Shown here: piece by piece, positions 240-60,267 of the stretch
How positions within the stretch are numbered: position 1 is the stretch's first letter
Layout of the letters: every line of letters starts with the position of its first letter
Source: an uncultured Candidatus Saccharibacteria bacterium
Lineage (GTDB): Bacteria; Patescibacteriota; Minisyncoccia; Minisyncoccales; Staskawiczbacteraceae
Direction: 5' to 3'
Length of the DNA: 64,000 bases
Assembly (NCBI GenBank): GCA_964599285.1
Contig: CAZREI010000003.1
Location: forward strand, 3,595 to 67,594
Notes under the pieces: model-generated
Database searches by the model: none
What the model saw: only the letters and a program-made list of their open reading frames with translations
Told to the model about the DNA's origin: nothing
Position numbers and translations under genes: made by a program

Positions 240-266
240 GTCATTGCGAGCGAAGCGCGGCAATCC
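240..266 (+). repeat. CAT-core repeat (GTCATTGCGAG..GCAATC), copy 1
   Basis: GTCATTGCGAGCGAAGCGCGGCAATCC. The termini ATTGC/GCAAT are complementary, and the family recurs at least 12 times in the window. Confidence 0.85.
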
Positions 267-386
267 AGTTTTTAAAAATCCGTGAACTGAAACTATTTAC
301 ATTACTAAATTAATATGATATTCTGTATTTAGTTCTAAGCACCCAAACTCGTAGGCAGCTATGCCTTAAAATAGCAGGAGTACAGA

Positions 387-785
387 ATGCACAACATCTA
401 TAACCTCGAAAGAATCATTAAGGAATTCGCACGCCTTACTGGTAAGGACTTACCATCTGCTACTGGGCAGATTGAGGACATTCTTGATTATCTGCTCTTT
501 AATCACCCGCACGACAGTCGTCCAGGGAGCGAGGATCATTTTCGTCTCTCGGGTACTTACGAACGGCTTGCCGAATACAATCGGAAAACTGTGAACGAGG
601 ATGAGCAGCTTGCTCGGTACTTCCGAATTGCTACGAGCATAGGAAGCCACATCGTTAGCAAAGGACTGTGGATTGAGCTAGAACGGCTCCGGGGGATCGA
701 AAATGGGAGTTTGCAAGAAATTCCTGCCAAGGTTCTGAGAGCATATCTCTCGGCAAAGCACTCGCATAAGAACGATATCGTCTAG
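387..785 (+). CDS. hypothetical protein (132 aa)
   Basis: The ORF has GGAG 8 nt upstream of the ATG and a hairpin terminator directly downstream. It looks more G+C-rich than its neighbours by eye. I recognise no motif. Confidence 0.55.
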   Translation: MHNIYNLERIIKEFARLTGKDLPSATGQIEDILDYLLFNHPHDSRPGSEDHFRLSGTYERLAEYNRKTVNEDEQLARYFRIATSIGSHIVSKGLWIELERLRGIENGSLQEIPAKVLRAYLSAKHSHKNDIV

Positions 786-795
786 TTTTTGTCAG

Positions 796-836
796 GTCCT
801 GCGATTACAACTTCGGTTGTGTCGCAGGGCTTTTTT
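796..836 (+). terminator. rho-independent terminator
   Basis: An imperfect stem GTCCTGCGA..ACAAC / GTTGT..TCGCAGGGC with loop TTCG is followed by TTTTTT. Confidence 0.6.
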
Positions 837-890
837 ATTTGGAAAATTTGCATAAATGGATTAAGAAGTGATACAATTTAATAAACAATA

Positions 891-1762: not shown

Positions 1763-1763
1763 T

Positions 1764-3989: not shown

Positions 3990-4013
3990 CCGCGCGCGCC
4001 GCGGCGCGCGCGG
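3990..4013. terminator. 24-bp perfect GC palindrome directly after the ftsK stop
   Basis: CCGCGCGCGCCGCGGCGCGCGCGG equals its own reverse complement. No T-tract follows, so terminator function is uncertain. Confidence 0.35.
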
Positions 4014-4051
4014 AATTCCCAAATCCCAATTTCCAATTTCCATCCCGCGCC

Positions 4052-4114
4052 GTCATTGCGGCCAGCTGAGCTGGCCAGACCCGCTAAGCGGGTCTGGCCG
4101 AAGAGCGGCAATCT
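4052..4114 (+). repeat. CAT-core repeat, long variant with internal hairpins
   Basis: GTCATTGCG...GCGGCAATCT encloses GGCCAGCTGAGCTGGCC and GGCCAGACCCGCTAAGCGGGTCTGGCC. It is preceded by CCAATTTCC word repeats (4017..4045). Confidence 0.8.
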
Positions 4115-4505: not shown

Positions 4506-4674
4506 CTTTGAATTACGAAATGCTTTTTGAAAGGCGGGTTTCGGGTCTTTTCTCCAAATTTTGGCTATAAATTCGCTATAAATATTTTACGTAGCTTGCT
4601 ACGTAAAATATTTCTATCAAATTTCTATCTCAAAATTTGAAGAAAATACCTCGAAAGCATTTCGTAATTCAAAG
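4506..4674 (+). mobile_element. LH (long-hairpin, MITE-like) element, copy A
   Basis: Perfect 18-bp terminal inverted repeats CTTTGAATTACGAAATGC / GCATTTCGTAATTCAAAG. It carries the conserved core TTGGCTATAAATTCGC..apex hairpin..TTCTATCAAATTTCTATCTCAAAA. It has no coding capacity. Confidence 0.8.
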
Positions 4675-8129: not shown

Positions 8130-8307
8130 TTACCGTGAATTACGAAATGGATATATAGGAAACATATTTCTTGTCTTTTCCCCAATTTTTGGCTATAAAT
8201 TCGCAATAATTTTTATGCTTATGCGTGGCTAAGCATAAAAATTCTATCGAATTTCTATCTCAAAAATTGGGAAAAATCCAAAGAAACCATTTAGTAATTC
8301 ACGGTAA
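8130..8307 (+). mobile_element. LH element, copy B
   Basis: TIR TTACCGTGAATTACGAAATGG / CCATTTAGTAATTCACGGTAA (1 mismatch). It has the same core as copy A with apex hairpin variant TTTTTATGCTTATGCGTGGCTAAGCATAAAAA. It starts 3 nt after the recA stop. Confidence 0.8.
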
Positions 8308-8851: not shown

Positions 8852-8869
8852 TGCATCAACGGGAATCTG

Positions 8870-8969
8870 GAATCTTGTATCTGGTATCTTGAATTGAATT
8901 TAGAATTTAGAATGTAGCGCTTTGCATTCAAGATTCTTAATTCTATTCCAGCTTCAAGATACAAGATTC
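8870..8969. repeat. about 100-bp imperfect palindrome built from GAATCT/CTTGAAT words
   Basis: GAATCTTGTATC (8870) pairs with GATACAAGATTC (8958). The centre is GAATGTAGCGCTTTGCATTC. It fills the ybeY-ftsA gap. Confidence 0.7.
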
Positions 8970-8983
8970 ATAATTCAAGCGTA

Positions 8984-10228
8984 ATGGCACGCGGTCACAT
9001 CATCACGGGTTTGGACATCGGCACCAGCGCCATTAAGGTTTTGGTTGCGCAAAAAAAGGCAAATGAGTGGGAGCTTTTGGCCTACGACCAAATTCCTTCT
9101 TTTGGCCTGCGTCGCGGTGTGGTGGTCAACGCAGAAGAAACGGCCAAAAATATCCAGCTCCTGCTTTCCGGTGTTGAGCGGGACCATAACATCCGCATTA
9201 ATTCGGCTTTTGTGAACATCGGCGGCAGCCACCTGTACGTGATTCCATCTGATGGCATTATTTCGGTATCGCGCGCCGACCAGCGGATTTCCAAAGAAGA
9301 CGTAGAGCGGGTGTTGCAGGCCGCCCGGTCCATTAACATTCCATCTAACGAAGAAATTTTGGACGTTTTTCCCAAAGAATTTATCATTGACGACCAGCAC
9401 GACATCAAGCAGCCCGAAGGCCTAAGCGGCAAACGGTTGGAAGCAAAGGTGGTACTGCTTTGTTATTTTCAATCATACTTTACCAACTTGACCACGGCGG
9501 TATTAAATGCCAAACTGCAAATTAATGACCTGGTGCCTTCTCCCTTGGCCGCCGCCGAAGCGGTGCTTACTGGCCAGCAAAAAGAACTGGGGGTTGCGTT
9601 AATTGACATTGGATCCGACACCACCAGCCTTGCCGTGTTTGAAGAGGGTGACCTGGTGCACCTTGCCATTTTTCCGCTGGGATCGGCCAACATTACCAAA
9701 GATATTGCTATTGGGCTTCGGGTGGAATTTGCCACGGCCGAGAATATTAAAAAACAGCATGGGTCGCTCTTAGTTGGCGGCAACGGCATGGGCAATGGCA
9801 AAAAAGATCAAAGCAAAAAGAAAATAGAAATGTTTGAACAGGCCGATTCACTTTCTTTCACGGAAAAGGAACTGGTTAATATTATTGGTCCGCGGGTGCA
9901 AGAAATTTTGGACCTAATGCAAAAGGAACTTAAAAAAATCGGCAAACAAGAATTGCTGCCAGCCGGGATTGTTTTGACCGGCGGCGGGGCAAAGTTGCCG
10001 GGAATTAAGGAATTGGCCAAAGAGCAGTTGCGGCTTCCTTGCGAGATTGGCGTTATCAAGGGCATCGCCGGGCTGGAACAGGATCCTGCTTACGCCACGG
10101 TGGCGGGCTTGGTGCTGGGCGGCGCCAGTATTGATGAGTCAGGGGGCGAAGGGATGTCTGAATTTTTGGGATTTATGAAAAAAACTTCTTTTAAGCTCAA
10201 GAAAATGTTTCGAGTCTTCATCCCATAA
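8984..10228 (+). CDS. ftsA: cell division protein FtsA
   Basis: Actin-like ATPase start GLDIGTSAIKVLV, VLTGGGAKLPG, and a C-terminal amphipathic tail KKTSFKLKKMFRVFIP. Confidence 0.95.
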   Translation: MARGHIITGLDIGTSAIKVLVAQKKANEWELLAYDQIPSFGLRRGVVVNAEETAKNIQLLLSGVERDHNIRINSAFVNIGGSHLYVIPSDGIISVSRADQRISKEDVERVLQAARSINIPSNEEILDVFPKEFIIDDQHDIKQPEGLSGKRLEAKVVLLCYFQSYFTNLTTAVLNAKLQINDLVPSPLAAAEAVLTGQQKELGVALIDIGSDTTSLAVFEEGDLVHLAIFPLGSANITKDIAIGLRVEFATAENIKKQHGSLLVGGNGMGNGKKDQSKKKIEMFEQADSLSFTEKELVNIIGPRVQEILDLMQKELKKIGKQELLPAGIVLTGGGAKLPGIKELAKEQLRLPCEIGVIKGIAGLEQDPAYATVAGLVLGGASIDESGGEGMSEFLGFMKKTSFKLKKMFRVFIP

Positions 10229-10231
10229 CTG

Positions 10232-10316
10232 GCTACGAAATACGAATTTGTTACGAATATACCAAATCAAACGCAACGTTAATTCGTATATTGGTACTTG
10301 ATTCGTATTTCGTAGC
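10232..10316. repeat. 85-bp hairpin element built from ACGAAT/ATTCGT words
   Basis: A perfect 16-bp inverted repeat GCTACGAAATACGAAT / ATTCGTATTTCGTAGC. It ends 8 nt before the ftsZ ATG. Confidence 0.75.
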
Positions 10317-10323
10317 GAATTTC

Positions 10324-11270: not shown

Positions 11271-11428
11271 GGAGTAATCACGAATATACAAATACGATCA
11301 AATATACAAATTTTACAAATATACAAATCTCGTCACCGTCATTGCGAGCCGCAGCGTGGCAATCTATCACATTCGTATATTGGTAACATTTGTATATTAT
11401 TTTAGATTTGTATATTCGTGATTACTCC
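11271..11428 (+). repeat. arm-core-arm element (TATACAAAT arms plus CAT core), copy 1
   Basis: 23-bp perfect TIR GGAGTAATCACGAATATACAAAT / ATTTGTATATTCGTGATTACTCC. The CAT core lies at 11338..11365. A paralog sits at 28800..28955 in the opposite orientation. Confidence 0.85.
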
Positions 11429-17876: not shown

Positions 17877-18113
17877 CCTTGAATTACGAAATGCCCGCTT
17901 AAGAAGACTCTTTTTGTCTTTTCCGAGACGGGGCGAATTGGCTGCGGCCAATTGCGCCTCGCGTCTTGACCATCAACGTTGCGATAATCGGCAAAACTTT
18001 CGCCTCCAAATTCGCAATAAATATTTTACGTAGCTTGCTACGTAAAATATTTCTATCAAATTTCTATCTCAAAATTTAGGGAAAATCCTAAAAAGGCATT
18101 TCGTAATTCAAGG
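17877..18113 (+). mobile_element. LH element, copy C (carries a nested insertion of about 80 bp)
   Basis: Perfect 19-bp TIR CCTTGAATTACGAAATGCC / GGCATTTCGTAATTCAAGG. The apex hairpin is identical to copy A. An extra hairpin-rich segment (about 17925..18005) replaces part of the left core. Confidence 0.8.
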
Positions 18114-19520: not shown

Positions 19521-20630
19521 ATGGGCTTGCGATACATGGAACCAAAAAAGAAAAAAATCCTTATTTTGTCTATGACGGCTGGATTTGGCCATGTCCGGGC
19601 AGGGGAGGCGCTTTTGGATTATGCCAAAGAACATTTGCCCGAGGCAAGCGCACAGCACGTTGATGTGCTTGACATTGACCCAACTCTTAGAAAATACTCT
19701 TTGAAAATGTATGGACTGGTAAGTAAAAAACTACCGTTGTTGTGGGGAATGTTCTATGAGTCTGGATTGTTATTTTTCGTCGTTAAGAAATTCATGAGTA
19801 TCAGAGCAGCCTTCAACGATAGCATCCCAGCCTATGTGCGCCAAAAAAATCCCGATGCCGTCATCTGCACCAACATTTTTATTTTGCATTTGCTGGGCCG
19901 GTCTGGCCGAGCTTTATTTAAAAATATCCCCTTGGGCGTTGTGGTAACCGATTACCATGGCCATTCCTTTTACCGCGTTGATTGGATTCATTACTATTTT
20001 GTGGCCACGGCCAGCGTCGGTCAGGAATTGGAAGCTATAGGTATTCCCAAAGAAAAAATTGTGGTGACGGGAATTCCCATCAATCCTAAATTTTACGTCA
20101 AAGAAAATATCGGTGAACTGAAAGCAAAATATGGCGTCCAAAACCATTTGCCGGTCGTAGTATTGATAGCTTCGTTTAGCATTTCCGGGCGCCAGTTGCA
20201 AGGTCTTGTGGAAAAATTATTAGGTCTTGATCCGCCAATATATCTGATTGCAATTACCAGCGGCAACCAAAAGTGTTATGATATGCTAAAAAATAATGTT
20301 GGCGGACACGAGCGGTTTTTGCTGGTCAACTGGACAAACGAAATAGAAGAATATATAAAAATAGCAGACGTGGTGATAAGCAAAGCCGGAGGACTGACGG
20401 TTTCTGAATGCCTTGCCCTGCAAACACCGATGATTATTTTCAATCCTATTCCCGGGCAAGAAGAACATAACGTCGAATTTTTGGAAAAAAATAATTTTGG
20501 CAAACAGGCGGCTGACGTGGATAGAATTATTAACCTGGTCCCAGGCATGATAGCAAAGGCTCATAGTAGCCCTCTACCGCTTTTTGAAGTCACAAATCCT
20601 TGCGAGAAAATATTCAGTGTATTAATTTGA
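19521..20630 (+). CDS. GT28 glycosyltransferase (MGDG synthase / UgtP-like diacylglycerol glycosyltransferase)
   Basis: ILILSMTAGFGHVRAGEAL (N-terminal G-loop) and ADVVISKAGGLTVSECLALQTPMIIFNPIPGQEEHN (C-terminal donor site). It starts 3 nt after the upstream gene. Confidence 0.8.
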   Translation: MGLRYMEPKKKKILILSMTAGFGHVRAGEALLDYAKEHLPEASAQHVDVLDIDPTLRKYSLKMYGLVSKKLPLLWGMFYESGLLFFVVKKFMSIRAAFNDSIPAYVRQKNPDAVICTNIFILHLLGRSGRALFKNIPLGVVVTDYHGHSFYRVDWIHYYFVATASVGQELEAIGIPKEKIVVTGIPINPKFYVKENIGELKAKYGVQNHLPVVVLIASFSISGRQLQGLVEKLLGLDPPIYLIAITSGNQKCYDMLKNNVGGHERFLLVNWTNEIEEYIKIADVVISKAGGLTVSECLALQTPMIIFNPIPGQEEHNVEFLEKNNFGKQAADVDRIINLVPGMIAKAHSSPLPLFEVTNPCEKIFSVLI

Positions 20631-20808
20631 AATTTACAATTTGAAATTTGAAATCAATTTGAAATGATTGAATTTGAAATTTGAAAATGTTACGTTCTCG
20701 TCATTGCGAGGAGCGTAGCGACGTGGCAATCTACAGTTTTCAAATTTAGACATTTAAATATTCACTTTTTGATTTCAAATTTAAAATTTAAAATTTCAAA
20801 TTTACAAT
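20627..20808. repeat. arm-core-arm element (AATTTGAAAT arms, CAT core at 20700..20732)
   Basis: The left arm has TTTGAAAT words and the right arm ATTTCAAA words. The centre is GTCATTGCGAGGAGCGTAGCGACGTGGCAATCT. It fills the whole gap between GT28 and htrA. Confidence 0.8.
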
Positions 20809-23118: not shown

Positions 23119-25818
23119 ATGAACGGAAGCGGTGCAAATTTTACTAACAAGGCGCAGGATGCCATTTTATCGGCACAATCCATCGCGCAGGACAAGGGGC
23201 AGCAGCAAATTGATGCCCTGCATTTGCTTTACGCGCTTTTGGTGCAAGAAGGGTCGCTGGTCATTACCCTATTACAAAAGTTGGGAGTAGATGTGGACGT
23301 CTTAAAAAAGAAAACCGAAAGCCAAATTTCCAAAATTTCCACTATTTTAACGCCAACCGCCTTTGGCCAATTTTACTTGACCCAGGACATGGCCAAAGTG
23401 CTGGATAAAGCGCGCCAGGAAGCCTCAAACATGCAGGACGAATTTATTTCGGTGGAGCATTTGTTCTTGGCACTGCTGGATCAAAAATCTATGGCTAGGG
23501 ATGTTTTGGAAAAAACGACGGTGTTTGGCGCGGGTTCAGATACAAAAAGTTCAAAATTAGATTACGACAGTGTGTTAAAAGTGCTCTCGCAAGTTCGCGG
23601 TGGCCAGCGCATCACTGACCCGGAGCCCGAATCCAAGTACCAGGTCATAGAAAAATATACCCGAAACTTAACCGATTTGGCGGCCAGCGGAAAAATTGAC
23701 CCGATCATCGGCCGCGATAACGAAATCCGTAGGCTGATGCAGATTATTTCCCGCCGAACCAAAAATAATCCGGTATTGATTGGCGAAGCCGGCGTGGGAA
23801 AAACTGCCATTGTGGAAGGGTTTGCCCAAAGAGTAGCGCGAGGAAATGTCCCCGAATTTTTAAAAAACAAGGAAGTCATTTCACTGGATTTGGGAGCCAT
23901 TATCGCCGGCACCAAGTACCGGGGCGAATTTGAAACCAGGATCAAGGCTTTGCTCAAAGAAATTTCCCGGTCAGCCGGCAAATACATTTTGTTTATTGAC
24001 GAACTGCACACACTGGTTGGCGCAGGAGCGGCTGAAGGCGCCATTGACGCGTCTAACTTACTAAAACCGGCGCTGGCTCGCGGGGAACTGAAAGCCATTG
24101 GCGCCACAACGCTTAAAGAATACCAAAAGCATATTGAAAAAGACCCGGCCTTGGAGCGGCGCTTCCAGCCCATTTTTGTGCAGGAGCCAACCATTGACGA
24201 TGCTATCGCCATTTTGCGGGGCATCAAAGAAAAATACGAAGTGCACCATGGCGTGCGCATCAAAGACCAGGCCATTAAGGCGGCGGTGGAACTTTCCAGC
24301 CGCTACATTGCCGATCGATTTTTGCCTGACAAGGCAGTGGATTTAATGGACGAGGCAGCTTCGGCATTAAGGTTAGAAATTGAATCCGAACCCCAAGAAC
24401 TGGAAAAATTCCAGGAGGAAATCACCAAGCTGGAAATTGAAAAACAGGCGCTTAAAAAAGAAAAGGATTCGCAAAAGCGCCTAGCAGCCATTGCCAAAGA
24501 GCTGGCCGATATTAAAGAAAGCACCAAGGGTTTGCGGGCCAAGTGGGATGCCGAAAAGGAGTTGATTAACAAAATTAAGGATATCCGCAAGCAAATTGAC
24601 CAGCTTTCTTACCAAACCGACATTGCCCAGCGTGAAGCTAATTTGGAAAAGGTGGCGGAAATAAAATACGGAAAAATCCCGATGTTGTTGAAAGAACAAA
24701 AACAGATAGAACAGAAATTGGTAAAGTTGCAAAAAACCCATCACTTTTTAAAAGAGGAAGTGACCGAAGAAGACGTGGCCCGGGTAGTTTCACGCTGGAC
24801 GGGAATCCCGGTAATGCGTTTGATTACCGAAGAAGCCAAGAAACTGGAAACCATGGAAACCACGTTCAACCGCCGTGTCATCGGCCAAGAAGAAGCTATC
24901 AGCGCCATTTCGCGGGCCATCCGCCGCGCGCGGGCTGGCATTTCTGAAGAAAATAAGCCTCTGGGATCGTTCTTGTTTTTGGGGCCCACGGGCGTTGGCA
25001 AAACCGAAACCGCAAGAGCTCTTGCCGAATTTTTGTTTGACGATGAAAAAGCCATGATTCGTTTGGATATGTCCGAATACATGGAGCGCCACACCGTTTC
25101 CAAAATTATCGGCAGCCCGCCAGGATACGTAGGCTATGAAGAAGCCGGTCAATTGACTGAAAAAGTGCGTCGTCGGCCATACTCGGTGATTTTGCTGGAT
25201 GAAATTGAAAAAGCCCATCCGGAAGTGTTTAACATTTTGCTGCAAATTTTTGAAGACGGCAGGCTGACCGATTCCAAGGGCAGGCTGGTTTCGTTTAAAA
25301 ACACCATTATCATTATGACTTCCAATGTTGGGTCCGACTACATCAGCAAAATGTCGGCTATTGGCTTTTCCACCAAGGAAGACATGCAGGAACGCGAGTC
25401 CATGAAAGACAAAATTTTAAATTCTTTGCGCGACCAGTTTCGCCCGGAATTTTTAAACCGTATTGATGAAATTGTCATTTTCAATTATTTGAAAACCGAT
25501 CAAATTAAAAAGATTGTGGATTTGGAAATGTCAAAAGTGCAAAAGCGCCTGGCTGCCAAGGAAATCAGCATTAAAATTTCGGAAAAAGCCAAGGAATTTT
25601 TGGCTAAGGAAGGTTTTGATCCGAATCTTGGAGCCCGGCCATTAAAGCGCGTTATCCAGCGGCTGATTTTGGATCCGTTGTCTATCAAAATTGTCACCAA
25701 TGAAATCAGCGAGGGCTCGCGCGTGTTGATTGATGAAAAAGGAGGCCAGGTTGTATTTGAAGTTCCGCGGCTTTTGTCCAAGATTGACATGCCAGAGAAA
25801 GTGAGTGCAAAGAAATAG
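23119..25818 (+). CDS. clpB: ATP-dependent disaggregase ClpB
   Basis: The Clp N-domain is followed by two AAA+ modules ([18 protein letters not shown]), a long coiled-coil M-domain between them, and the sensor motif [10 protein letters not shown]. Confidence 0.97.
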
Positions 25819-25897
25819 CAATCGCGGAATGACGCGGAAATTTACGCGCCCGCCTCTCCTCAACAGCGAGTCGAGGCCGGGGAAAAACGCGGAAAGC

Positions 25898-25919
25898 GGC
25901 GGCGCCCGCGGGCGCCGCC
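25898..25919. terminator. 22-bp perfect GC palindrome after clpB
   Basis: GGCGGCGCCCGCGGGCGCCGCC equals its reverse complement. No T-tract follows. Confidence 0.35.
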
Positions 25920-25937
25920 GATCAATCCACCACCACC

Positions 25938-25965
25938 GTCATTGCGAGGCGCACCGAAGCAATCT
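25938..25965 (+). repeat. CAT-core repeat
   Basis: GTCATTGCGAGGCGCACCGAAGCAATCT is identical to the copy inside secA (60114..60141). Confidence 0.85.
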
Positions 25966-25982
25966 TAGTTGTGTAAATAATA

Positions 25983-26702
25983 ATGTCAACGGTAAAATTC
26001 CTCTCTATCATGGTTTTGGCACTTATTGTCGGAGCAGCGGGAGCCGCTGTTTTTAATTTTTCTTTGATGCCTTATTTTCTGGCCAGCACGTATTTTGACA
26101 ATTACCAATTTGTCAAAGATTATAAGCAAGGCAAAATCACCGTCAACAAAACTGACCAAGTCTACATTCAGGAAAACACATCGGTTCAAAATGCTATTGA
26201 GCGGGTTAAGGCATCGGTGGTGGCAATCCAGGGCGCCGGCAAAACGGTAACATCAGGGCTGGTGATTACTTCCGATGGAAGTATTATTACGCTGGCCAGT
26301 AAAATTCCGGCTATCACAAAAGTTACCGTGTATTTGCAAGGAGTTGCTACCGACGTGAAGGTGTCAACCACCGACGTTCCCAGCAATTTGGCGCTACTGA
26401 AAGCCGACAAGCAAAATTTGCAGACAGTCCCCTTTGCCGATGCGAGCTCCATAACCTTGGGTCAAAACATATTTTTGACCGCCAGCACTAGCGCGGCTCA
26501 AGATCATTGGTTTGCCAACGAAGGGATTATTACTGAAATCAGTTCTGACGCCATAAGGACTAACATTATAGAAAGGTCTGCGGCAAATGGCGCGCCATTA
26601 TTTACCAGCGCCGGCCAACTGGTTGGCTTGGCGGTGGTTGACCAAAGTGGCAAAGTGTGGGCGATTCCAGTAAGCAAAATTCAAAAGCTACTGGGCTTGT
26701 AA
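25983..26702 (+). CDS. membrane-anchored trypsin-fold (S1C/HtrA-like) protein lacking the catalytic triad
   Basis: The N-terminal TM helix and fold landmarks align to HtrA (SGLVITSDGSIIT, NLALLKAD, ANGAPLFTSAGQLVGLAV). However His is absent, Asp is replaced by Asn, and GNSGGP becomes AANGAP. Confidence 0.55.
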   Translation: MSTVKFLSIMVLALIVGAAGAAVFNFSLMPYFLASTYFDNYQFVKDYKQGKITVNKTDQVYIQENTSVQNAIERVKASVVAIQGAGKTVTSGLVITSDGSIITLASKIPAITKVTVYLQGVATDVKVSTTDVPSNLALLKADKQNLQTVPFADASSITLGQNIFLTASTSAAQDHWFANEGIITEISSDAIRTNIIERSAANGAPLFTSAGQLVGLAVVDQSGKVWAIPVSKIQKLLGL

Positions 26703-26703
26703 A

Positions 26704-26868
26704 GAACGAATCAACACGAATTGACGAACGAATAAACACGAATCACGAATTCTCGCGTTCGTCATTGCGAGGAACGCTAAGCGTTCCGAGCCGCAGCGAA
26801 GCAATCTTTCTATTCGTGATTCGTGAAAATTCGTGGCGCCAGAGCGCCTGATTCGTGTTAATTCGTTA
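26704..26868. repeat. arm-core-arm element (ACGAAT/ATTCGT arms, CAT core at 26761..26807)
   Basis: CACGAATCACGAAT (26737) pairs perfectly with ATTCGTGATTCGTG (26812). The core encloses the GGAACGCTAAGCGTTCC hairpin. Confidence 0.8.
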
Positions 26869-26878
26869 TATCATAGCA

Positions 26879-27202
26879 ATGATATCATACGAGGATTTTA
26901 AAAAATTAGAAATAAAAATTGGGACTGTGGTTTCGGCTCAAGCCATCGAAGGGTCGGACAAGTTAGTCAAACTGATGATTGGTTTTGGCGACCACCAGCG
27001 CCAGATTGTCGCCGGCATTGCCCAAAGCTTTCCCGATGTTTCAGTGCTGGTTGGCAAACAAATGCCGGTGGTGGTAAATTTGGAACCAAAAATGCTCAAA
27101 GGCGTGGAAAGCCAGGGAATGATTTTGGCAGCAAGTAACGAAGGCCAGCCGGTGTTATTGAAACCGGAAAAAGAAGTCCCACCCGGCAGTTTAGTCAAAT
27201 AG
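26879..27202 (+). CDS. tRNA-binding domain protein (CsaA/Trbp111-like)
   Basis: The OB-fold pattern IKIGTVVSAQAIEGSDKLVKLMIGFGD..RQIVAGIA...ESQGMILAA. The ATG at 26879 is preferred to the upstream GTG that lies inside the repeat. Confidence 0.8.
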   Translation: MISYEDFKKLEIKIGTVVSAQAIEGSDKLVKLMIGFGDHQRQIVAGIAQSFPDVSVLVGKQMPVVVNLEPKMLKGVESQGMILAASNEGQPVLLKPEKEVPPGSLVK

Positions 27203-27228
27203 TTTACATATAGTCTACGTAACGAGAA

Positions 27229-27275
27229 CATACCATAATTTTCGCGATCGCGAAAATTATGGTATGTTTTTATTT
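27229..27275 (+). terminator. rho-independent terminator (hairpin family ATACCATAATT..AATTATGGTAT, copy 1)
   Basis: CATACCATAATTTTCGCGATCGCGAAAATTATGGTATG is a perfect palindrome followed by TTTTTATTT. A sister hairpin lies at 61159..61194. Confidence 0.8.
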
Positions 27276-27325
27276 ATCCACAGATGGTTAGCAAATCTTT
27301 ATGGTAACATTAAAAAATTCTATTT

Positions 27326-27354
27326 TTGACTTACCAAAATACTTTTGTTAAGAT
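27326..27354 (+). promoter_or_regulatory. sigma70-like promoter
   Basis: TTGACT-17 nt-TAAGAT ends 9 nt before the ATG at 27364. Confidence 0.35.
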
Positions 27355-27363
27355 TTTAGGATT

Positions 27364-27972
27364 ATGGAAGAAAATAAAGGCATAAAAGTAACCAACGCTG
27401 TCTATAGGATTTTGGATTGCCTGCCAGATTCTGACCCCTTAAAAAATAAGGCCAAAGAGAAAGCGTTGGCTATTTTGGAAAACCTGACGCTGGTTTTCAG
27501 TGCCCAAGACTGGGTTTCTTTTCAAAAGGAAAAAGCAGCGGCCAGCGTCATGGATGACATTGGTATTTTGCAAGGCTACCTTCAAGTCGGGCGAGACCAG
27601 GGCTGGATAGATGCCATGAACTTTTTGATTATTACCAAAGAGTACCAGTCTATTAAAAACAGCATTGTGCCGCCAAGAGGACTGATAAAGCAAAGCTTGC
27701 AGATTGCCCAGGCAACGGTTAAAGAGGCGCCAAGGGTTGCCCCAGCAATTAGCACGCAAGCCGGATATATGCAAAGTGAAAAATCTTCAAAGCGGCAGCG
27801 GAAAATTTTAGAGATACTGCAAAAAAGAGAAAAAACTCAAGTTTCAGATATCATAAAAGAGTTGCCCAATATCACCAAAAGAACGATCAGGAGAGATTTA
27901 GATGATTTGCTAAAGAGCGGTAAAGTTGCAAGGATGGGGGAATGGAATCAGATTTTTTACCAAATAAAGTAG
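27364..27972 (+). CDS. helical-domain protein with C-terminal DeoR-type winged HTH
   Basis: The C-terminal RQRKILEILQKREKTQVSDIIKELPNITKRTIRRDLDDLLKSGKV matches the DeoR-family HTH pattern. Confidence 0.6.
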   Translation: MEENKGIKVTNAVYRILDCLPDSDPLKNKAKEKALAILENLTLVFSAQDWVSFQKEKAAASVMDDIGILQGYLQVGRDQGWIDAMNFLIITKEYQSIKNSIVPPRGLIKQSLQIAQATVKEAPRVAPAISTQAGYMQSEKSSKRQRKILEILQKREKTQVSDIIKELPNITKRTIRRDLDDLLKSGKVARMGEWNQIFYQIK

Positions 27973-27973
27973 G

Positions 27974-28148: not shown

Positions 28149-28218
28149 ATAGGACATTTCATAAATTTAAAAAATGTCCTATCAATAATAATTTGTCCTA
28201 CCATTTGTCCTATCATTT
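28149..28218 (+). promoter_or_regulatory. cluster of TGTCCTA motifs upstream of the sigma-factor gene
   Basis: The 12-bp inverted repeat GATAGGACATTT..AAATGTCCTATC is followed by tandem ATTTGTCCTACC ATTTGTCCTATC, giving four occurrences of (T)GTCCTA. Confidence 0.3.
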
Positions 28219-28799: not shown

Positions 28800-28955
28800 G
28801 GAGTAATCACGAATATACAAATTTACGTTAATATACCAATATACAAATGTGCTGGATTGCCACGTCGCTTCGCTCCTCGCAATGACGGACAGAACGGATT
28901 TGTATATTGGTAAAATTTGTATATTGTTCTAAATTTGTATATTCGTGATTACTCC
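28800..28955 (-). repeat. arm-core-arm element (TATACAAAT arms plus CAT core), copy 2, inverted relative to copy 1
   Basis: It has the same 23-bp TIRs as 11271..11428. The CAT core lies on the opposite strand (28854..28886, GGATTGCCACGTCGCTTCGCTCCTCGCAATGAC). It starts at the nucleotide after the sigma stop codon. Confidence 0.85.
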
Positions 28956-29819: not shown

Positions 29820-29848
29820 TACAATCTATCGTGCTTTTGCGCCCATCC

Positions 29849-29975
29849 GTCATTGCGCAAAGTCGCGAGCGAGGCCAGCTTTGCTGAATCGCCCGACTCA
29901 GGCGCACCGAAGCAATCTTATTTTTGTGAGATAGATTGCCGCGTGTCCGGCTTGCGAACCGGCACTCGCAATGAC
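29849..29975. repeat. inverted pair of long CAT-core repeats
   Basis: The forward copy is 29849..29918 (GTCATTGCG...GCACCGAAGCAATCT). The reverse copy is 29934..29975 (GATTGCC...CTCGCAATGAC). Confidence 0.8.
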
Positions 29976-30082
29976 GAGAGAAGAGTTACTAATTAAAAAT
30001 TGGATAAGTCGCTGGGTTGTGGTCATTACGTAAGATTGCAACCGAAAGCGCTCTTAATGGCTTTGTTTTTCTCTCGTTTAAT

Positions 30083-35111: not shown

Positions 35112-37436
35112 CTATTTGGGGAGAGTCTGCAAAAATGCTTCCACGTTTTGTTTTGACTGCGGAGAAAGCCGCAAGACAGTCAGCGCTTCCTGGCGAGCTT
35201 TTGCGTATTGGCCGGTTTGGCGATAAAAAAATGCTAGCGAAGAATGGTATTGGGGATTATTTTGGTTTTTTGCAACAAGTTTTTCGTATACAGAAACCAA
35301 ATTTTGATAATCAGAAACAGACCCATAGGCATTTGATAATTCCAATAAACTTGCTTCTGTGGTAATGTCATATCCTTTTTGATTGGATTTTAGTATGGTT
35401 TTGTCGGCATCAGTGCCATCTTTTAAATATATTTTTGAAAGCCCTAAATACCACCAGCAATCTGGGAAAGCGGAATTTATGGTGATGCATTCTTGGGAAT
35501 ATTGTTTGGCACCTTGGTAGTTACCGGCGACTATTTGGAGCTTAGCGAGTCCAACTAATATTTCTTGGTGTCTTGGAGATAGTTGCAGGGCTTTGTTTAA
35601 ATAATTTTTTGCCTCTGTTAACAGGCTGTTTTTTGTTTCAATATTTTTTTCTTGTTCAGCTAAGATAGTTGCAGCGTTTCCTAAAAAAATCCAGTAGCGA
35701 GTATAAAGGGGTTGTATTTTTATGGCCTGGCTAATAACTTCTACGCCTTTTTTTAAATATGCCCTGCTATATTCCGGATAATCACCATTGCAGGATTTTA
35801 CAAAGTCACCGTATTCCAGCCTTGTGTAAGAATCCAAAAAACTATGATATTGCAATTGCATGTCCATTAAGGCAAAGGCCGCGGCGCAATTTTTCTGGTT
35901 GACAAGGTCTTGAGCTTTGTTTGCTTGGCCGTTGATGTAAAAAGGCAGAAGATTGTATTGCCAGAGAAACCATATTAGCAAAATAAATAAGAAAGCAAAT
36001 ATTGTTTTTCTTCCACCGTCATTGCGAGCGAAGCGAAGCAATCTATCAAATAGATTTAACGAGATTGCTTCGCTGCGGCTCGCAATGACGGACGTTTTGA
36101 TTCTTGAATGATCAGTAAGGTACAGACTGTAACCAATGATAAGAAAAAATATAAGATACGTGGCAAAGGAATCAAAGCCAAATAAGTTTGCAATGAAATA
36201 TCCGATTAACGTTGCCTGTATCCCGTGCGCCAATAGTTTTTGATGCTCACTTTCGCTAGCGGATTTTTGCTGATTTTTCAGTTTGTTTAGCTGCCAAAAC
36301 AAGGCGACAAAAAAAAGCAAATAAGTGATTAAAGCAAAAATTCCCGCATCGCTTATTGTTTGAAAAATGATATTATGTGCTTTGTCCCACCAACTGATGT
36401 CGGTATTTAAATAAGGGATGGCAGGATTATAATATTTATCAAATCCAACGGAAAAATTCTCCGGTCCGTAGCCCAAAAGAAGCCTATCTTTTACGATGTG
36501 CAAATCGATCTGCCAAGCGGCAAAGCGCGGGTCGCTGATTAATTTTTTGACTGACAACCTTGATATGATTGGCTCAAATAATCTACTTTGTTCTAGGAAT
36601 TTTGGATATTGATCAATGGCGCTGACATAAAAAATTACGCCACCTGCCAAAATGGCAAGGCCAACAATAATTGGCTTTATAACCTTCATTTTTTTGGGAT
36701 ACAGCAGCAAAAAATACAATAATCCCAGCGCCATGCCCAAATAAACGGCGCGGGCGCCGGATATTAACATAACGTGAAGAAATAGAATCAGAGAGAAAAA
36801 ATAAAAGATTTTTTTTGTTTTACCCGAATGAGAATGAAAGGGTTCTTTTATGCCAAGAGACAATGTGATAAAAGATAACAGCAAAAGATAGGTTGCCAAA
36901 ATATCCGGGTTTCCCATGGTTGATGGCGGCCGGTATGGCGCCGGCGCAAATAAAGAGCCCAAGAGTCCATAGTATTGAATAATAGCTATCAAAGAAACGA
37001 ATACTCCAATAATAATTGAAACGAGCCAGGCGTTTTCCCAATCGCCATTATCAAATAACATAAAGACTAAGATTGCAAAAACAAAATAAAAAGCAAAGGT
37101 GATAAATCCACCGCTTCTATACGGACTTCCCCAAAAACTAAAATACGGATCAACGGAAAAAATGCTCGCTAATAAGAATATGATAAAAAGCGCCGCCAAA
37201 AGCCAAACCAGCACGTTTTTTTTAAGAATTGGCAGGTGAAGTTCTTGTTTTCTGAAAAAATATTGATAAGCAAATAAAAACAAAAGTATTGCCAAAATAC
37301 TTCTGAAAATGATGGTTTTTCCCCAATCTGCCGGAAAAAAATAAGGTGGAAAAGTTAAGATAGGTAGCGCCAATATGATAAAAAAACCTATGGCATATAA
37401 CCAGCGGAATTTATGAGAAAATACATTGTTTTTCAT
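35112..37436 (-). CDS. O-antigen ligase/polymerase-like membrane domain fused to C-terminal TPR repeats
   Basis: About 430 aa of polytopic membrane sequence with a Wzy_C-like loop (..WWDKAHNIIFQTISDAGIFAL..) is followed by TPR-like repeats. Its stop codon abuts the stop of the convergent gene with no spacer. Confidence 0.75.
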   Translation of the reverse strand: MKNNVFSHKFRWLYAIGFFIILALPILTFPPYFFPADWGKTIIFRSILAILLFLFAYQYFFRKQELHLPILKKNVLVWLLAALFIIFLLASIFSVDPYFSFWGSPYRSGGFITFAFYFVFAILVFMLFDNGDWENAWLVSIIIGVFVSLIAIIQYYGLLGSLFAPAPYRPPSTMGNPDILATYLLLLSFITLSLGIKEPFHSHSGKTKKIFYFFSLILFLHVMLISGARAVYLGMALGLLYFLLLYPKKMKVIKPIIVGLAILAGGVIFYVSAIDQYPKFLEQSRLFEPIISRLSVKKLISDPRFAAWQIDLHIVKDRLLLGYGPENFSVGFDKYYNPAIPYLNTDISWWDKAHNIIFQTISDAGIFALITYLLFFVALFWQLNKLKNQQKSASESEHQKLLAHGIQATLIGYFIANLFGFDSFATYLIFFLIIGYSLYLTDHSRIKTSVIASRSEAISLNLFDRLLRFARNDGGRKTIFAFLFILLIWFLWQYNLLPFYINGQANKAQDLVNQKNCAAAFALMDMQLQYHSFLDSYTRLEYGDFVKSCNGDYPEYSRAYLKKGVEVISQAIKIQPLYTRYWIFLGNAATILAEQEKNIETKNSLLTEAKNYLNKALQLSPRHQEILVGLAKLQIVAGNYQGAKQYSQECITINSAFPDCWWYLGLSKIYLKDGTDADKTILKSNQKGYDITTEASLLELSNAYGSVSDYQNLVSVYEKLVAKNQNNPQYHSSLAFFYRQTGQYAKARQEALTVLRLSPQSKQNVEAFLQTLPK
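36018..36089. repeat. inverted pair of CAT cores inside the O-antigen-ligase/TPR ORF (72 bp, in frame)
   Basis: GTCATTGCGAGCGAAGCGAAGCAATCT..AGATTGCTTCGCTGCGGCTCGCAATGAC is translated on the - strand as VIASRSEAISLNLFDRLLRFARND, between the membrane and TPR parts. Confidence 0.85.
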
Positions 37437-39618: not shown

Positions 39619-39766
39619 AAAAAATATTTCTTGTCTTTCCCCCAATTTTTGGCTACAAATTCGCTATAATTTTTCGGCGGAGCCGTTGGCTAAGCCGAAA
39701 AATTCTATCAAATTTCTATCTCAAAAATTGAAGAAAATCCAAAGAAACCATTTTGTGATTCACGGT
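39593..39766 (+). mobile_element. LH element, copy F
   Basis: TIR ACCGTGAATCACCAAATGG / CCATTTTGTGATTCACGGT (1 mismatch). The apex hairpin is identical to copy D. It ends 17 nt before the next ATG. Confidence 0.8.
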
Positions 39767-57059: not shown

Positions 57060-57076
57060 GAGGAAAAATAAAATTC

Positions 57077-57607
57077 ATGAAGTTGCCCATTACCGATCAA
57101 TTTCTTTACGATATCTTTAATGCCATTAGCGAAGAGGAAGATACCTGGCATTTTTTAGTTCATCCACCCCGAACATTAGGACATATAGCCTGGGATACTG
57201 ATGATCCAATCTACCAGAAGTACTACAAGATAATGACCCCGCAAAAATTTTCCTGGTTAATACACTACCTAAAGAAAAATAATTTTATTAGAGTTAAAAA
57301 CCTGGAGGGCAAAAAGGGGATTGCCATTACTAAAAAGGGAATTTCTAAAGTATTGCAAGCAAGCTTTAAGCTGGAAAATAAAAAGAAAAGGAGCGACGGC
57401 AAATGGATTATGCTGATATTTGATATGCCCAAGAAATATGAAAAAGCGCGGAAATTATTAAGAAGTATTCTGGAAAATTTGGGGTATAAACTTTTGCAAC
57501 ATAGCGTATGGGTTTGCCCTTTTGACGTATTAGAAAAAACCGAAACATTATTGCAAACACATTCGCTGGACGAATATATCAGGATCTTCCTAATAGAAGA
57601 GCTTTAG
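57077..57607 (+). CDS. PaaX-like protein: winged-helix N-terminus plus Cas2-like ferredoxin-fold domain
   Basis: The C-terminal half WIMLIFDMPKKYEKARKLLRSILENLGYKLLQHSVWVCPFD follows the Cas2/PaaX-central-domain pattern (beta-strand ending in D, helix, G-Y/F-x-hhQxSVa). The N-terminal part looks wHTH-like (LIHYLKKNNFIRVKN..GIAITKKG). Confidence 0.55.
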   Translation: MKLPITDQFLYDIFNAISEEEDTWHFLVHPPRTLGHIAWDTDDPIYQKYYKIMTPQKFSWLIHYLKKNNFIRVKNLEGKKGIAITKKGISKVLQASFKLENKKKRSDGKWIMLIFDMPKKYEKARKLLRSILENLGYKLLQHSVWVCPFDVLEKTETLLQTHSLDEYIRIFLIEEL

Positions 57608-57612
57608 AAAGA

Positions 57613-57650
57613 TATAGAGTAAAATAGAAACGTTTCTTTTTTACTCTATA
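57613..57650. repeat. P38 palindrome, copy 4
   Basis: TATAGAGTAAAATAGAAACGTTTCTTTTTTACTCTATA. The pairing extends by GA/TC to 57611..57652. Confidence 0.9.
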
Positions 57651-57774
57651 TCATGGATATGGTGAATGTTATGGCCATTTCTTAATTCAGGTATGGCTTT
57701 TTATATTTTTGACGTCCTCGATTGTGGTTCTTAACCCCGTTGCTAAAATGGGATTTTTTGGTTAGAGTTACACT

Positions 57775-60267
57775 ATGAGTATATTTACCAAATTATTTGG
57801 GAATGCAAATGAAACGTATGTCAAGAATTTGCAACCCATCATAGAAAAAATCAATTCTTTTGAACCGGAACTACAGAAACTATCTGACGCGGAATTAAAA
57901 AACAAAACAAAAGAATTTAAAGATCAGCTGTCCCAAGGCCAAACATTGGACGATCTTTTACCCGAAGCTTTTGCCACCGTCAGGGAAGCTTCAAGGCGCG
58001 CTTTAAACCAGCGCCATTTTGATGTGCAGTTAATTGGCGGCATGGTTTTGCATCAGGGGAAAGTGGCTGAAATGCGCACGGGCGAAGGAAAAACCTTGTC
58101 GGCAACGCTGCCAGCTTATTTGAATGCTCTGGAAGGCAAAGGCGTGCACATTGTTACGGTCAACGATTACTTGGCCAAGCGTGACATGGTTTGGATGGGC
58201 CAAATTTACGGAGCTTTGGGGCTTAGCACCGGATGTGTCACTGGGGAATCGGGTTACGTGTACGATGCCTCTTTTGTAAATATTCCGGAAGATAAAGAAC
58301 GCGATCTTGTCGGCGGTTTTAAAGTAGTGCAGGATTTTTTAAAGCCTTCAACCAAAAAAGAAGCCTACGACGCCGACATTACCTACGGCACCAACAATGA
58401 GTTTGGGTTTGATTATTTGCGCGACAATATGGTGTATGATTTAGGCCAGCAAGCCCAGCGCGGCCACCACTATGTGATTGTGGACGAGGTGGATTCGGTG
58501 TTAATTGATGAGGCGCGCGTGCCATTGATTATTTCCGGACAAGCCGAAGACGCCAGCCAAAAATATTATCAATTTGCCAAAGTAGTGGCGCCCTTGGAAA
58601 AAGAAACCGACTACGTGCTGGATGAAAAATTAAAAGCCGTCAACTTTACCGAAGAAGGGCAAAACAAAGTGGTGGCAAGGCTGGGGTCCGACCCGTGGGC
58701 AGAAAACGACATTACCACCACCCATCAATTGGAAGCGGCGCTGAAAGCCAAAACGTTATTTTTGCGCGATCGCGATTACGTGGTTAAAGGCCAGGACATT
58801 ATGATTATTGATGAATTTACCGGTCGCATGTTGCCCGGGCGCCGATGGAGCGCCGGTTTGCATCAGGCGGTGGAGGCCAAAGAAGGCGTGCACATTCAGC
58901 CCGAGTCCATAACGCTGGCGACTATTACGTTTCAAAATTATTTTCGTTTGTACAAAAAAATTTCCGGCATGACCGGCACGGCTTTGACGTCGGCTGAGGA
59001 ATTAGACAAAGTATACAAGCTGGATGTGGTGGTTATTCCCACCCATCGGCCGATGGTGCGCCAGGATTTTTCTGACAAAATTTTTAAAACCGAGGAAGGG
59101 AAATTCAAAGCGGTGGTCAGTCAGATTAGAGAGTTAAACCAAAAAGGCCAGCCGGTTTTGGTGGGGACGCGGTCGGTGGAACGCAACGAATTTTTGGGAA
59201 AATTATTGGCCCGCGAAGGCATTGCGCACCGGATTTTAAACGCCAAAAACCATGAAAAGGAAGGAGAAATTATTGCTCAAGCCGGAAAAATGGGAGCGGT
59301 GACCATCGCCACCAACATGGCCGGCCGCGGCGTAGACATTATTTTAGGAGGGAATCCGCCAGTACCCGAAGACGCGGCAAAAGTGCGGGAACTTGGTGGC
59401 CTGTATGTTTTGGGAACCGAACGCCATGACGCGCGCAGAATTGATAATCAGTTAAGAGGCCGCGCGGGTCGGCAGGGCGACCCGGGGGCTTCGCAGTTTT
59501 TTGTTTCGCTGGAAGACGACCTGATGCGCATTTTTGGCGGCGACAAGATAAAGTCGCTGATGACGGCATTGAATGTGCCCGATGACGAACCCATTCAGGC
59601 AAAAATTATTTCGGGAGCACTGGAATCCGCCCAGCAAAAAATTGAGGGCTTCAACTTTGACGCGCGCCACCACGTCCTGGAATATGATGATGTGATGAAT
59701 AAACACCGAGAAATAATTTACAAGAAACGACGAGCGTTTCTTGAAATTTCCAATTCCCCCAGCCTCGACTCGCAGAGCTCGTCGATGCGAGGCGGGCAAT
59801 TACCAATTTCCAATGAAATCCTAAATTCTGAAGAAATGGGAAAAAAGAAACAGGAATTAGGCGAGGAACAATTTTTTCAGGTGGTAAAATTTGTTGGTTT
59901 GAAAGTGATAGACACGCTGTGGCAAGATCACTTAACTAACATGGAACACATGCGAGATTCGGTAAGGCTTCGCGCGTACGGAGGCAAAGATCCGCTAGTG
60001 GAATACAAAAACGAGGGCAGGCAATTATTCACGTGCTTGCTGGAAGAAATGGATGTGGCCATTGCAAATAATATTTTGACCGCGCACGTGCATCAAGGCG
60101 CGCCACCAAATCTGTCATTGCGAGGCGCACCGAAGCAATCTGACGAAGTCGGCCGTAACGATTTATGTCCCTGTGGTTCAGGGAAAAAATGGAAAAAATG
60201 CGGGATGTTAAACACTAAAGAGCACCAGGAATTAATGGCCACGCTTAGCGTGGCTAAACCTCACTGA
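57775..60267 (+). CDS. secA: preprotein translocase ATPase SecA
   Basis: MRTGEGKTL (Walker A), IVDEVDSVLIDEARVPLIISG, TNMAGRGVDI, and the C-terminal zinc finger CPCGSGKKWKKCG. Confidence 0.97.
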   Translation: MSIFTKLFGNANETYVKNLQPIIEKINSFEPELQKLSDAELKNKTKEFKDQLSQGQTLDDLLPEAFATVREASRRALNQRHFDVQLIGGMVLHQGKVAEMRTGEGKTLSATLPAYLNALEGKGVHIVTVNDYLAKRDMVWMGQIYGALGLSTGCVTGESGYVYDASFVNIPEDKERDLVGGFKVVQDFLKPSTKKEAYDADITYGTNNEFGFDYLRDNMVYDLGQQAQRGHHYVIVDEVDSVLIDEARVPLIISGQAEDASQKYYQFAKVVAPLEKETDYVLDEKLKAVNFTEEGQNKVVARLGSDPWAENDITTTHQLEAALKAKTLFLRDRDYVVKGQDIMIIDEFTGRMLPGRRWSAGLHQAVEAKEGVHIQPESITLATITFQNYFRLYKKISGMTGTALTSAEELDKVYKLDVVVIPTHRPMVRQDFSDKIFKTEEGKFKAVVSQIRELNQKGQPVLVGTRSVERNEFLGKLLAREGIAHRILNAKNHEKEGEIIAQAGKMGAVTIATNMAGRGVDIILGGNPPVPEDAAKVRELGGLYVLGTERHDARRIDNQLRGRAGRQGDPGASQFFVSLEDDLMRIFGGDKIKSLMTALNVPDDEPIQAKIISGALESAQQKIEGFNFDARHHVLEYDDVMNKHREIIYKKRRAFLEISNSPSLDSQSSSMRGGQLPISNEILNSEEMGKKKQELGEEQFFQVVKFVGLKVIDTLWQDHLTNMEHMRDSVRLRAYGGKDPLVEYKNEGRQLFTCLLEEMDVAIANNILTAHVHQGAPPNLSLRGAPKQSDEVGRNDLCPCGSGKKWKKCGMLNTKEHQELMATLSVAKPH
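59746..59814 (+). repeat. 9-bp direct repeats (ATTTCCAAT) bracketing a 51-bp insert inside secA
   Basis: The repeat copies lie at 59746..59754 and 59806..59814, exactly 60 bp apart and in frame. The unit encodes ISN-SPSLDSQSSSMRGGQLP-ISN. Confidence 0.8.
60114..60141 (+). repeat. CAT-core repeat inside secA
   Basis: GTCATTGCGAGGCGCACCGAAGCAATCT is 28/28 identical to the intergenic copy at 25938. It is translated as SLRGAPKQS in the linker before the zinc finger. Confidence 0.9.

Follow-up and report, generated by a model that had tools for sequence, protein, structure and literature searches.

A CGTC-tagged palindromic repeat in a Patescibacteria contig, with an anatomy suggestive of a single-stranded DNA hairpin

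The closest described relatives of the repeat reported here form the CGTC-tagged superfamily of repetitive extragenic palindromic (REP) sequences, divided into families CGTC-1 to CGTC-4 by Di Nocera, De Gregorio & Rocco (2013, BMC Genomics 14:522; PMC3733652). Members carry an unpaired CGTC (or TGTC, a common variant, or CCTC), stems of 8-9 bp that open with A-T, loops of 4-5 nt (Table 1 of that study) and short tails near CCA. They occur mainly as head-to-head (HH) dimers, with tail-to-tail (TT) pairs rare, near the 3' ends of open reading frames (ORFs) and also as in-frame intragenic units in five phyla, and the Rickettsia palindromic elements (RPEs) RPE-4 and RPE-6 were equated with CGTC-4 and CGTC-1 units. 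Function and transposase were both stated as not known (PMC3733652), and our literature search returned no later mechanism, only papers citing the 2013 study. Here we analyse a 64,000-nt stretch, referred to as the window, of contig CAZREI010000003.1 from an uncultured Candidatus Saccharibacteria bacterium, which holds 12 copies of a short palindrome with a YGTC tag and paired ATTGC/GCAAT ends. We judge it fairly probable that these copies are CGTC-tagged miniature palindromic repeats of the REP type whose tagged strand folds as single-stranded DNA (ssDNA) and is copied by an enzyme acting in trans.

The 11-mer GTCATTGCGAG has ten exact occurrences in the window, against 0.59 expected with up to one mismatch allowed, and none of 100 shuffles reached ten. 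Relaxing the scan brought in two further copies whose 5' box is a variant, 4052 (GTCATTGCGGC) and 29849 (GTCATTGCGCA). When half-sites were scanned across the window, 12 YGTCATTGC 5' halves were recovered, each matched by a GCAATC 3' half of its own, and no 5' half stood alone; the 64 kb hold exactly 12 complete copies, against about 0.6 by chance. The original prediction of at least 12 copies of one real repeat family is borne out, with its coordinates correct to within 1 nt (Table 1), and the pairing it proposed between ATTGC and GCAAT is seen in 12 of 12 copies, so that the stem opens A-T, T-A. The tag reads CGTC in 11 copies and TGTC in one. The 3' half is CG-N-R-GCAATC in 10 of the 12, the others being 4052 (AGCGGCAATC) and 29965 on the minus strand (CGCGGCAATC), and the tails are CCA (two copies), CTA, CTT, CTC and CTG, which match the published consensus CCA only loosely. 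Interiors vary in length, as had been noted: those of the ten canonical copies span 9-29 nt, while the two variant copies reach total lengths of 62 and 69 nt; the hairpins GGAACGCTAAGCGTTCC and GGCCAGACCCGCTAAGCGGGTCTGGCC, quoted in the prediction, are present inside longer copies. Although no family name could be attached at that stage, the defining features of the CGTC-tagged superfamily (PMC3733652) are present. The kind of repeat had thus already been described, with no function assigned to it.

Copies 25938 and 60114, at loci 34 kb apart, are identical over 28 of 28 nt (GTCATTGCGAGGCGCACCGAAGCAATCT). The identity ends at the unit borders, with C against T before GTC and divergence after GCAATCT, and the flanks have no common target duplication. 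As first suggested, the comparison of these two sequences points to recent copying.

A search pattern of GTCATTGCGAG-N(5-35)-GCAATC was run against viral and genome collections and matched at least 120 loci in each. The matches listed provided a wider set of 375 instances, among which 265 different interiors occur, in 2.1 Mb of REP-bearing loci. The 5' and 3' boxes in these loci are fixed by the pattern, so their invariance is not independent evidence, and some 2,000 chance matches to the 17-nt pattern are expected in 596 Gb. Three features that the pattern leaves unspecified nonetheless indicate that the matches are genuine: the box before GCAAT is CGAA, CGTG or CGCG in 89% of instances (AA 56%, TG 21%, CG 11%), a pyrimidine precedes GTC in 91% (C 41%, T 50%), and the first position after GCAATC is a pyrimidine in 95%, the second being C in 44% and A in 32% (n = 375 throughout).

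Instances with all three features come from at least 12 phyla; carriers include Alpha-, Beta-, Gamma- and Deltaproteobacteria, Chloroflexota, Bacteroidota, Ignavibacteriota, Firmicutes, Planctomycetota, Nitrospirota, Zixibacteria, Armatimonadota, Riflebacteria and Patescibacteria. Cultured carriers include Bradyrhizobium, Pedobacter, Hymenobacter and Flavobacterium, and plasmids of Novosphingobium, Methylosinus, Methylocystis, Methylobacterium, Aulosira, Calothrix and Legionella also have the unit. The original prediction had placed it widely in assemblies of uncultivated bacteria, which understated its spread; the restriction to uncultivated organisms does not hold, since cultured isolates and plasmids carry it. 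Deposited phage records contain the unit only in Helicobacter prophages and in one faecal contig, so the "viral" signal comes mainly from prophages and metagenomic contigs. In phage contigs the units flank the major capsid gene. Classical CGTC-1 units (YGTC-ATTCCCGC-GMAG-GCGGGAAT-CCAG) co-occur in the loci.

Across the 375 instances the unit consists of a leader, Y-GTC, ATTGC, GAG, a variable hairpin, CG followed by AA, TG or CG, GCAAT, and C-Y. The leader (-11 to -1) is poor in G (0.15-0.17, against a background of 0.265). GAG faces CG-N-R in an internal loop made up of a G-C pair, an A.G mismatch, a G.N opposition and a bulged purine. Only five Watson-Crick pairs are fixed, and the hairpin interior spans 7-57 nt; the variable part forms a Watson-Crick hairpin that is plain in some units and has an extra GA...GA layer in others, as in GA-GCCC-GAA-GGGC-GA.

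Covariation was tested on a gap-free alignment of 23 distinct 36-nt units with 500 shuffles. All six variable stem pairs vary on both sides, and 92% of cells are paired, compared with 73% after shuffling; covariation scores 0.45, against 0.09, no shuffle of the 500 reached the observed value, and sliding the partners abolishes the signal. Oppositions other than Watson-Crick are unevenly distributed, with 53 G.A/A.G and 10 G.T, compared with 7 C.T/T.C and 1 A.C. Because the G.A and G.T oppositions are one-sided, it is the fold of the tagged strand that is maintained. Triloops of the GNA type make up 76 of 123. C-GNA-G loops form unusually stable DNA mini-hairpins, for example d(GCGAAGC); in stable RNA hairpins, by contrast, GNRA or UNCG tetraloops are preferred. 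Folding the two strands as DNA with nearest-neighbour models was uninformative, such standard models missing loops and mismatches of this kind.

Dimers in the loci are predominantly HH (145 elements), with 49 elements in head-to-tail (HT) and 19 in TT arrangement, and both window dimers (29848-29976 and 36017-36090) are HH with tags outside. Single units of the window lie in sense orientation in seven of eight cases. With improved gene calls, the wider set has 42 sense and 39 antisense single units, and thus no orientation bias relative to ORFs; a sense bias in low-GC loci, hinted at by crude gene calls, was gone with the better ones. The median distance to the upstream stop codon in the wider set is 77 nt. 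Some units stand in head-to-tail arrays of three to five (L074 2670-2856, L019 11383-11520, L129 1372-1956), with pyrimidine-rich spacers of 11-24 nt and adjacent units that differ by compensated hairpin changes, and nested or tandem forms also occur in which partial 5' halves precede a full unit.

Both intergenic and coding copies had been anticipated, and the window has nine of the former and three in frame, in two genes. The secA gene (57775-60267) holds copy 60114, which encodes SLRGAPKQS in the linker ahead of the SEC-C zinc motif. This linker differs in length and sequence in every homologue, and the homologue P0039 has a different unit there, read as SLRSEAKQS. The second host gene (35112-37436, minus strand) encodes a Wzy_C and TPR protein of 774 aa that carries the pair 36018/36079 in frame; the 72-nt dimer provides 24 codons (VIASRSEAIS...LLRFARNDG), and its peptide is absent from homologues. 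The loop that receives it is variable and is shorter in 29 aligned homologues; homologue P0135 has a single unit in it (VIAKSEATKQS), and P0149 has other CGTC types (DSRLRGND, a CGTC-1 peptide, and AGRKPGMT). Variable loops and different units in homologues indicate real in-frame additions at tolerant sites that recur across lineages, and the SecA and Wzy/TPR copies are, as judged from these alignments, extra residues in hypervariable loops. A repeat-like peptide, FDSAQGKQ, was also observed in a variable loop of SecA homologue P0026, which together with the P0149 peptides suggests that several repeat families colonise these loops in Parcubacteria. In a Helicobacter prophage (L242, BK070154), a unit at 2493-2522 lies within the 3' part of a Mu-like transposase gene; we take it as another intragenic copy and not as evidence for a mobilising enzyme.

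Differences that bear on turnover separate two related Helicobacter canis prophages, L243 (BK070053, 33700-34020), which has about 20 units, and L244 (BK070056, 32150-32545), which has about 6. The hairpin loop of an orthologous unit is flipped between them (AGG versus CCT), which we read as the mark of recombination within a DNA hairpin. There is also one clean 55-nt presence/absence difference containing a unit; other unit sites of the pair lie in non-homologous mosaic segments. Insertion polymorphism among plasmids was not seen, the Novosphingobium replicon having no close relative in the collection.

A strand-specific fold, the lack of orientation bias and the loop flip together point to the level of DNA rather than RNA, and we favour an ssDNA hairpin over an RNA element. 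In the mechanism we propose, the tagged strand would fold as a single-stranded DNA hairpin, and a trans-acting enzyme would read the tag and the foot of the stem and copy the unit to new sites. The model for such a step is provided, by analogy, by the HUH/Y1 enzymes (the REP-associated tyrosine transposases, RAYTs, and the TnpA of IS200/IS605) that recognise classical REPs by their GTAG tag and hairpin. Copies would persist where a hairpin does little harm, past stop codons or in flexible loops whose length can change by threes, and transcribed copies may serve as 3' hairpins of mRNA. The same sequence recurs across phyla, unlike in REPs that diverge with their RAYTs, which requires either a very conserved partner or horizontal movement; prophages are a plausible vehicle. 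A broader proposal, that CGTC elements at large are ssDNA hairpin replicators spread across bacteria, borne by prophages and read by an unrecognised, widespread non-RAYT enzyme, is put forward as tentative and somewhat doubtful. Such an enzyme would explain 17 nt identical from Patescibacteria to Bradyrhizobium. It is with similar hesitation that we suggest, within this broader proposal, that the ATTGCGAG...GCAAT form is the most widespread CGTC member.

Several observations weigh against an enzyme-copied ssDNA hairpin. Single units fold at only -2 to -5 kcal/mol on both strands in nearest-neighbour calculations, with z near 0; folding energy is no better than that of shuffles, so the structural case rests on covariation and not on predicted energy. 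Perfect compensation could itself arise by template switching within the hairpin, without selection. Strand placement is inconsistent, with the tagged strand of seven of eight window single units on the G-rich strand and that of 50 of 67 independent viral clusters (loci L001-L120; p about 7e-5) on the C-rich strand. The viral bias finds no account in the coding strand (39 same, 51 opposite), and genome loci have no strand-composition bias (37 to 27). The 55-nt difference between the H. canis prophages takes in 10-12 nt of flank on either side that is not conserved, and it lacks a target duplication; its direction is therefore ambiguous, and it could equally be a deletion. The published stem of 8-9 bp and loop of 4-5 nt are not matched by a unit with five fixed base pairs.

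The search for an enzyme points the same way. A tblastn search with six cores of RAYT/TIRYT found no match in the 2.1 Mb of loci and the window, and the 3,686 ORFs within 2.5 kb of units, when clustered, yielded no candidate enzyme; the clusters comprise phage capsid, portal and terminase proteins, and ABC ATPases about as frequent as background predicts. No transposase domain occurs in the 20 window proteins scanned, a small sample, and the window has no insertion sequence (IS). The 2013 authors likewise linked no transposase to CGTC repeats (PMC3733652), and a 2018 survey of Y1 transposases ties REPs only to GT[AG]G types, in agreement with the lack of a Y1 link here.

The placement of copies past genes would also suit a functional RNA hairpin (a terminator, a stabiliser of mRNA 3' ends or a processing site) kept by selection on the transcript. 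Seven of the eight window single units are in sense and stand 30-120 nt past stop codons, the median distance is similar in the wider set, units flank the major capsid gene in phage contigs, and many REPs have been argued to be transcribed (PMC3733652). We nevertheless consider such a hairpin unlikely. The even split of 42 sense and 39 antisense units contrasts with favoured mismatches that occur on the tagged strand only, a T-run follows closely behind just 1 of 12 copies, and some copies lie within coding regions. The loops are mostly GNA triloops and not GNRA or UNCG tetraloops, and the RNA stability of isolated units is no better than that of shuffled ones. Rfam gave no match at gathering scores over the whole window, and at permissive E-values over 25700-30300, where 5 of the 12 copies lie, it returned nothing beyond spurious microRNA-hairpin matches to long palindromes.

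A site that is bound or targeted without itself moving, whether through IS110/IS1111-type or filamentous-phage integration or through binding of a host protein to DNA, also seems improbable to us, even though a 17-nt consensus exact across at least 12 phyla is easier to reach via a conserved partner than by lineage-specific co-evolution. Precedents exist: phages integrate at the dRS3 units of Neisseria (ATTCCC-N8-GGGAAT, of CGTC-1 type), which counts in favour of a docking role, and the bacterial interspersed mosaic elements of E. coli bind gyrase and IHF. GTAG REPs of Coxiella are targets of IS1111 (PMC5896051). Yet none of the 12 copies is interrupted, no unit split by an inserted element and no 5' and 3' halves 0.3-4 kb apart were found in the 2.1 Mb, and the window is without IS elements. 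Strand-asymmetric mismatches speak against recognition as a duplex, and both the multiplication of copies and the identical 28-nt pair are left without account. An origin that needs no enzyme, by hairpin-templated replication slippage or template switching with gene conversion among dispersed copies, would accommodate the flipped loop of the orthologous units, the nested and tandem forms, the arrays with compensated interiors and the two paralogous composite palindromes of the window with similar flanks and differing interiors, and no transposase was found. It leaves unexplained how the same tag, foot and internal loop came to stand at new, unrelated sites, genes included, and how the same unit came to be in many phyla and in prophages; we regard it as very unlikely.

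The window itself encodes FtsK, FtsZ, ComEC, HtrA, ClpB, a sigma factor and SecA, with almost all genes on the plus strand; SecA, whose nearest relatives are about 79% identical, assigns it to the Patescibacteria, among the Parcubacteria close to Candidatus Staskawiczbacteria. Eight of the nine intergenic copies lie 30-165 nt past the upstream stop, seven of them within 30-120 nt, and no ORF is called upstream of copy 240. Four copies (11338, 20700, 26761 and 28876) stand at the apex of long AT-rich palindromes, and the paralogous pair 11271-11428 and 28800-28955 has similar flanks with dissimilar REP interiors. In these two, a copy is part of a composite palindrome of about 160 nt, and the copies at large are not fragments of one larger known mobile element. 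That units are generally seated within flanking palindromes was rejected (median z -0.03 in the wider set), the arrangement being peculiar to this genome.

Table 1 Coordinates of the repeat copies and composite palindromes in the window
Feature	Position	Strand	Description
REP, single	239..265	+	CGTC tag; interior CGAAGCGCG; tail CCA; intergenic, upstream of ORF 387-785
REP, variant 5' box GTCATTGCGGC	4051..4113	+	Long interior with 12-bp hairpin GGCCAGACCCGC-TAA-GCGGGTCTGGCC; 63 nt past FtsK stop, 8 nt ahead of ORF6N gene
Composite palindrome, AT-rich, ~160 nt	11271..11428		58-nt arms; REP 11338 at apex; paralogue of 28800-28955
REP	11337..11364	+	Apex of AT-rich composite palindrome 11271-11428; between ftsZ and comEC
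REP	20699..20731	+	Interior GAGCGTAGCGACGTG; apex of palindrome 20624-20802; between MGDG-synthase-like gene and htrA
REP	25937..25964	+	28-nt identity to secA copy; 120 nt past ClpB stop
REP	26760..26806	+	Extra hairpin GGAACGC-TAA-GCGTTCC; apex of palindrome 26727-26867
Composite palindrome, second copy	28800..28955		REP placed as in 11271-11428, but interior differs
REP (also cited as 28876)	28855..28887	-	Apex of composite palindrome 28800-28955; 56 nt past sigma-factor stop
REP, variant 5' box	29848..29917	+	~42-nt insert; 3' half identical to that of 25938; left member of tags-outside dimer
REP (also cited as 29965)	29934..29976	-	Interior TGCCGGTTCGCAAGCCGGACACGCG; right member of dimer with 29848..29917; 16 nt between tails
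REP	36017..36043	+	Left member of tags-outside dimer, in frame in Wzy_C/TPR gene (minus strand)
REP (also cited as 36079)	36063..36090	-	Right member of 36017-36090 dimer
REP	60113..60140	+	TGTC tag; 27 nt, 9 codons; in frame in secA

Other palindromes were observed nearby. AT-rich simple-repeat palindromes without an apical REP occur at 8863-8976 and 10227-10321, the latter resembling the arms of the composite element that bears REPs 11338 and 28876, of which it may be an "empty" relative. G+C-only perfect palindromes lie directly past the FtsK and ClpB stops (3990-4013 and about 25897-25920), and in both places a REP comes next, across a G-poor spacer of 20-37 nt; these palindromes may be the actual terminators, upstream of the REP. 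Another perfect palindrome has two copies, one at 173-210, 30 nt upstream of REP 240, and one at 57611-57652, just upstream of secA (TATAGAGTAAAA.AGAAAC / GTTTCTTTTTTACTCTATA). A second, unrelated repeat family consists of a palindrome of about 100 nt (TTTTCCCCAATTTTTGGCTATAAATTCGC... with an inverted partner) that resembles a miniature inverted-repeat transposable element (MITE), with five full copies (4548-4645, 8176-8275, 28020-28114, 30113-30212 and 39636-39736) and a partial one (18008-18063), none of which holds a CGTC unit. Window positions 28245-29819 comprise a sigma-factor gene of the extracytoplasmic function type followed by a gene for a 274-aa protein (28995-29819), the sole gene with REPs on both sides. 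Its product has one predicted membrane helix, no Pfam match and no enzyme-like features, and is possibly an anti-sigma factor.

For CGTC repeats, these results add a precise anatomy specific to one strand, with its tag, 5-bp foot, G.A internal loop and free hairpin, evidence for a fold that counts as ssDNA and not as RNA, a host range widened to at least 12 phyla, with bacteria of the candidate phyla radiation and prophages, and clear in-frame tolerance in an essential gene, secA. The unit also seeds spurious ORFs and peptide inserts (SLRG..KQS, VIA.SEA..QS, LLRFARND) in metagenome assemblies and should therefore be masked. If the reading enzyme were found, it would represent a new ssDNA-processing system of very broad host range.

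Among known systems, readings as CRISPR, integron attC site, uptake sequence or terminator were rejected on anatomy. For an intrinsic terminator, a T-run is present only behind copy 240 (1 of 12) and the wider set has no orientation bias. A MITE is set aside at a unit length of 26-69 nt, with no target-site duplication at the identical pair or at the prophage difference. The attC sites resemble the unit in having a single-strand hairpin whose foot is built from conserved ends, with extrahelical bases and a variable-length terminal structure; their R''/R' consensus (RYYYAAC / GTTRRRY), cassettes and integrase are absent here, so the likeness is an analogy of design only. RPEs are likewise palindromic repeats in frame in protein genes at tolerant sites, but RPE-1 measures 100-150 bp and is confined to Rickettsia, whereas the present unit is found across bacteria.

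The GTAG REPs and REPINs are closer, sharing an imperfect palindrome of 20-40 nt, an unpaired tetranucleotide at the 5' foot, inverted dimers, a position past genes and, on the mechanism proposed here, a single strand as the active form. They differ in their tag, which is YGTC in all copies here and not GT[AG]G, in the RAYT gene, of which none is near the units or detectable, and in being lineage-specific, whereas this sequence is conserved across phyla. A REPtron, a RAYT gene flanked by repeats, was not found in the window or the 2.1 Mb of loci, where no Y1-transposase similarity was seen.

The unit's DNA strings and encoded peptides gave only unrelated primer matches in the full-text literature. 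In the text of PMC3733652 and in its supplements, the strings ATTGC and GCAAT do not appear, and no peptide of Additional file 3 fits the unit consensus, those given being of ATTCCCGC, ATTGCCGGG and ATTCCGTGG types. CGTC-3, deduced from VIAGLDPAIH as CGTC-ATTGCCGGG-CTTGA-CCCGGCAAT-CCA, shares only the outer stem, CGTC-ATTGC...GCAAT-CC. The unit may yet have been grouped within one of the published CGTC families. With the CGTC superfamily as a whole it shares the YGTC tag, the A-T/T-A stem start, HH dimers, positions just past ORFs, in-frame genic copies, the lack of a linked transposase and, more loosely, the short C-rich tail. It departs from the published families in GAG facing CG-N-R with a bulged purine, in tandem G.A pairs, in an interior of 7-57 nt and in a host range of at least 12 phyla where five were published, among them Patescibacteria, Chloroflexota, Firmicutes and Planctomycetota, together with prophages. 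We read the unit as a member of the CGTC-tagged REP superfamily and, set against the descriptions in that article and its supplements, possibly a new structural variant of it.

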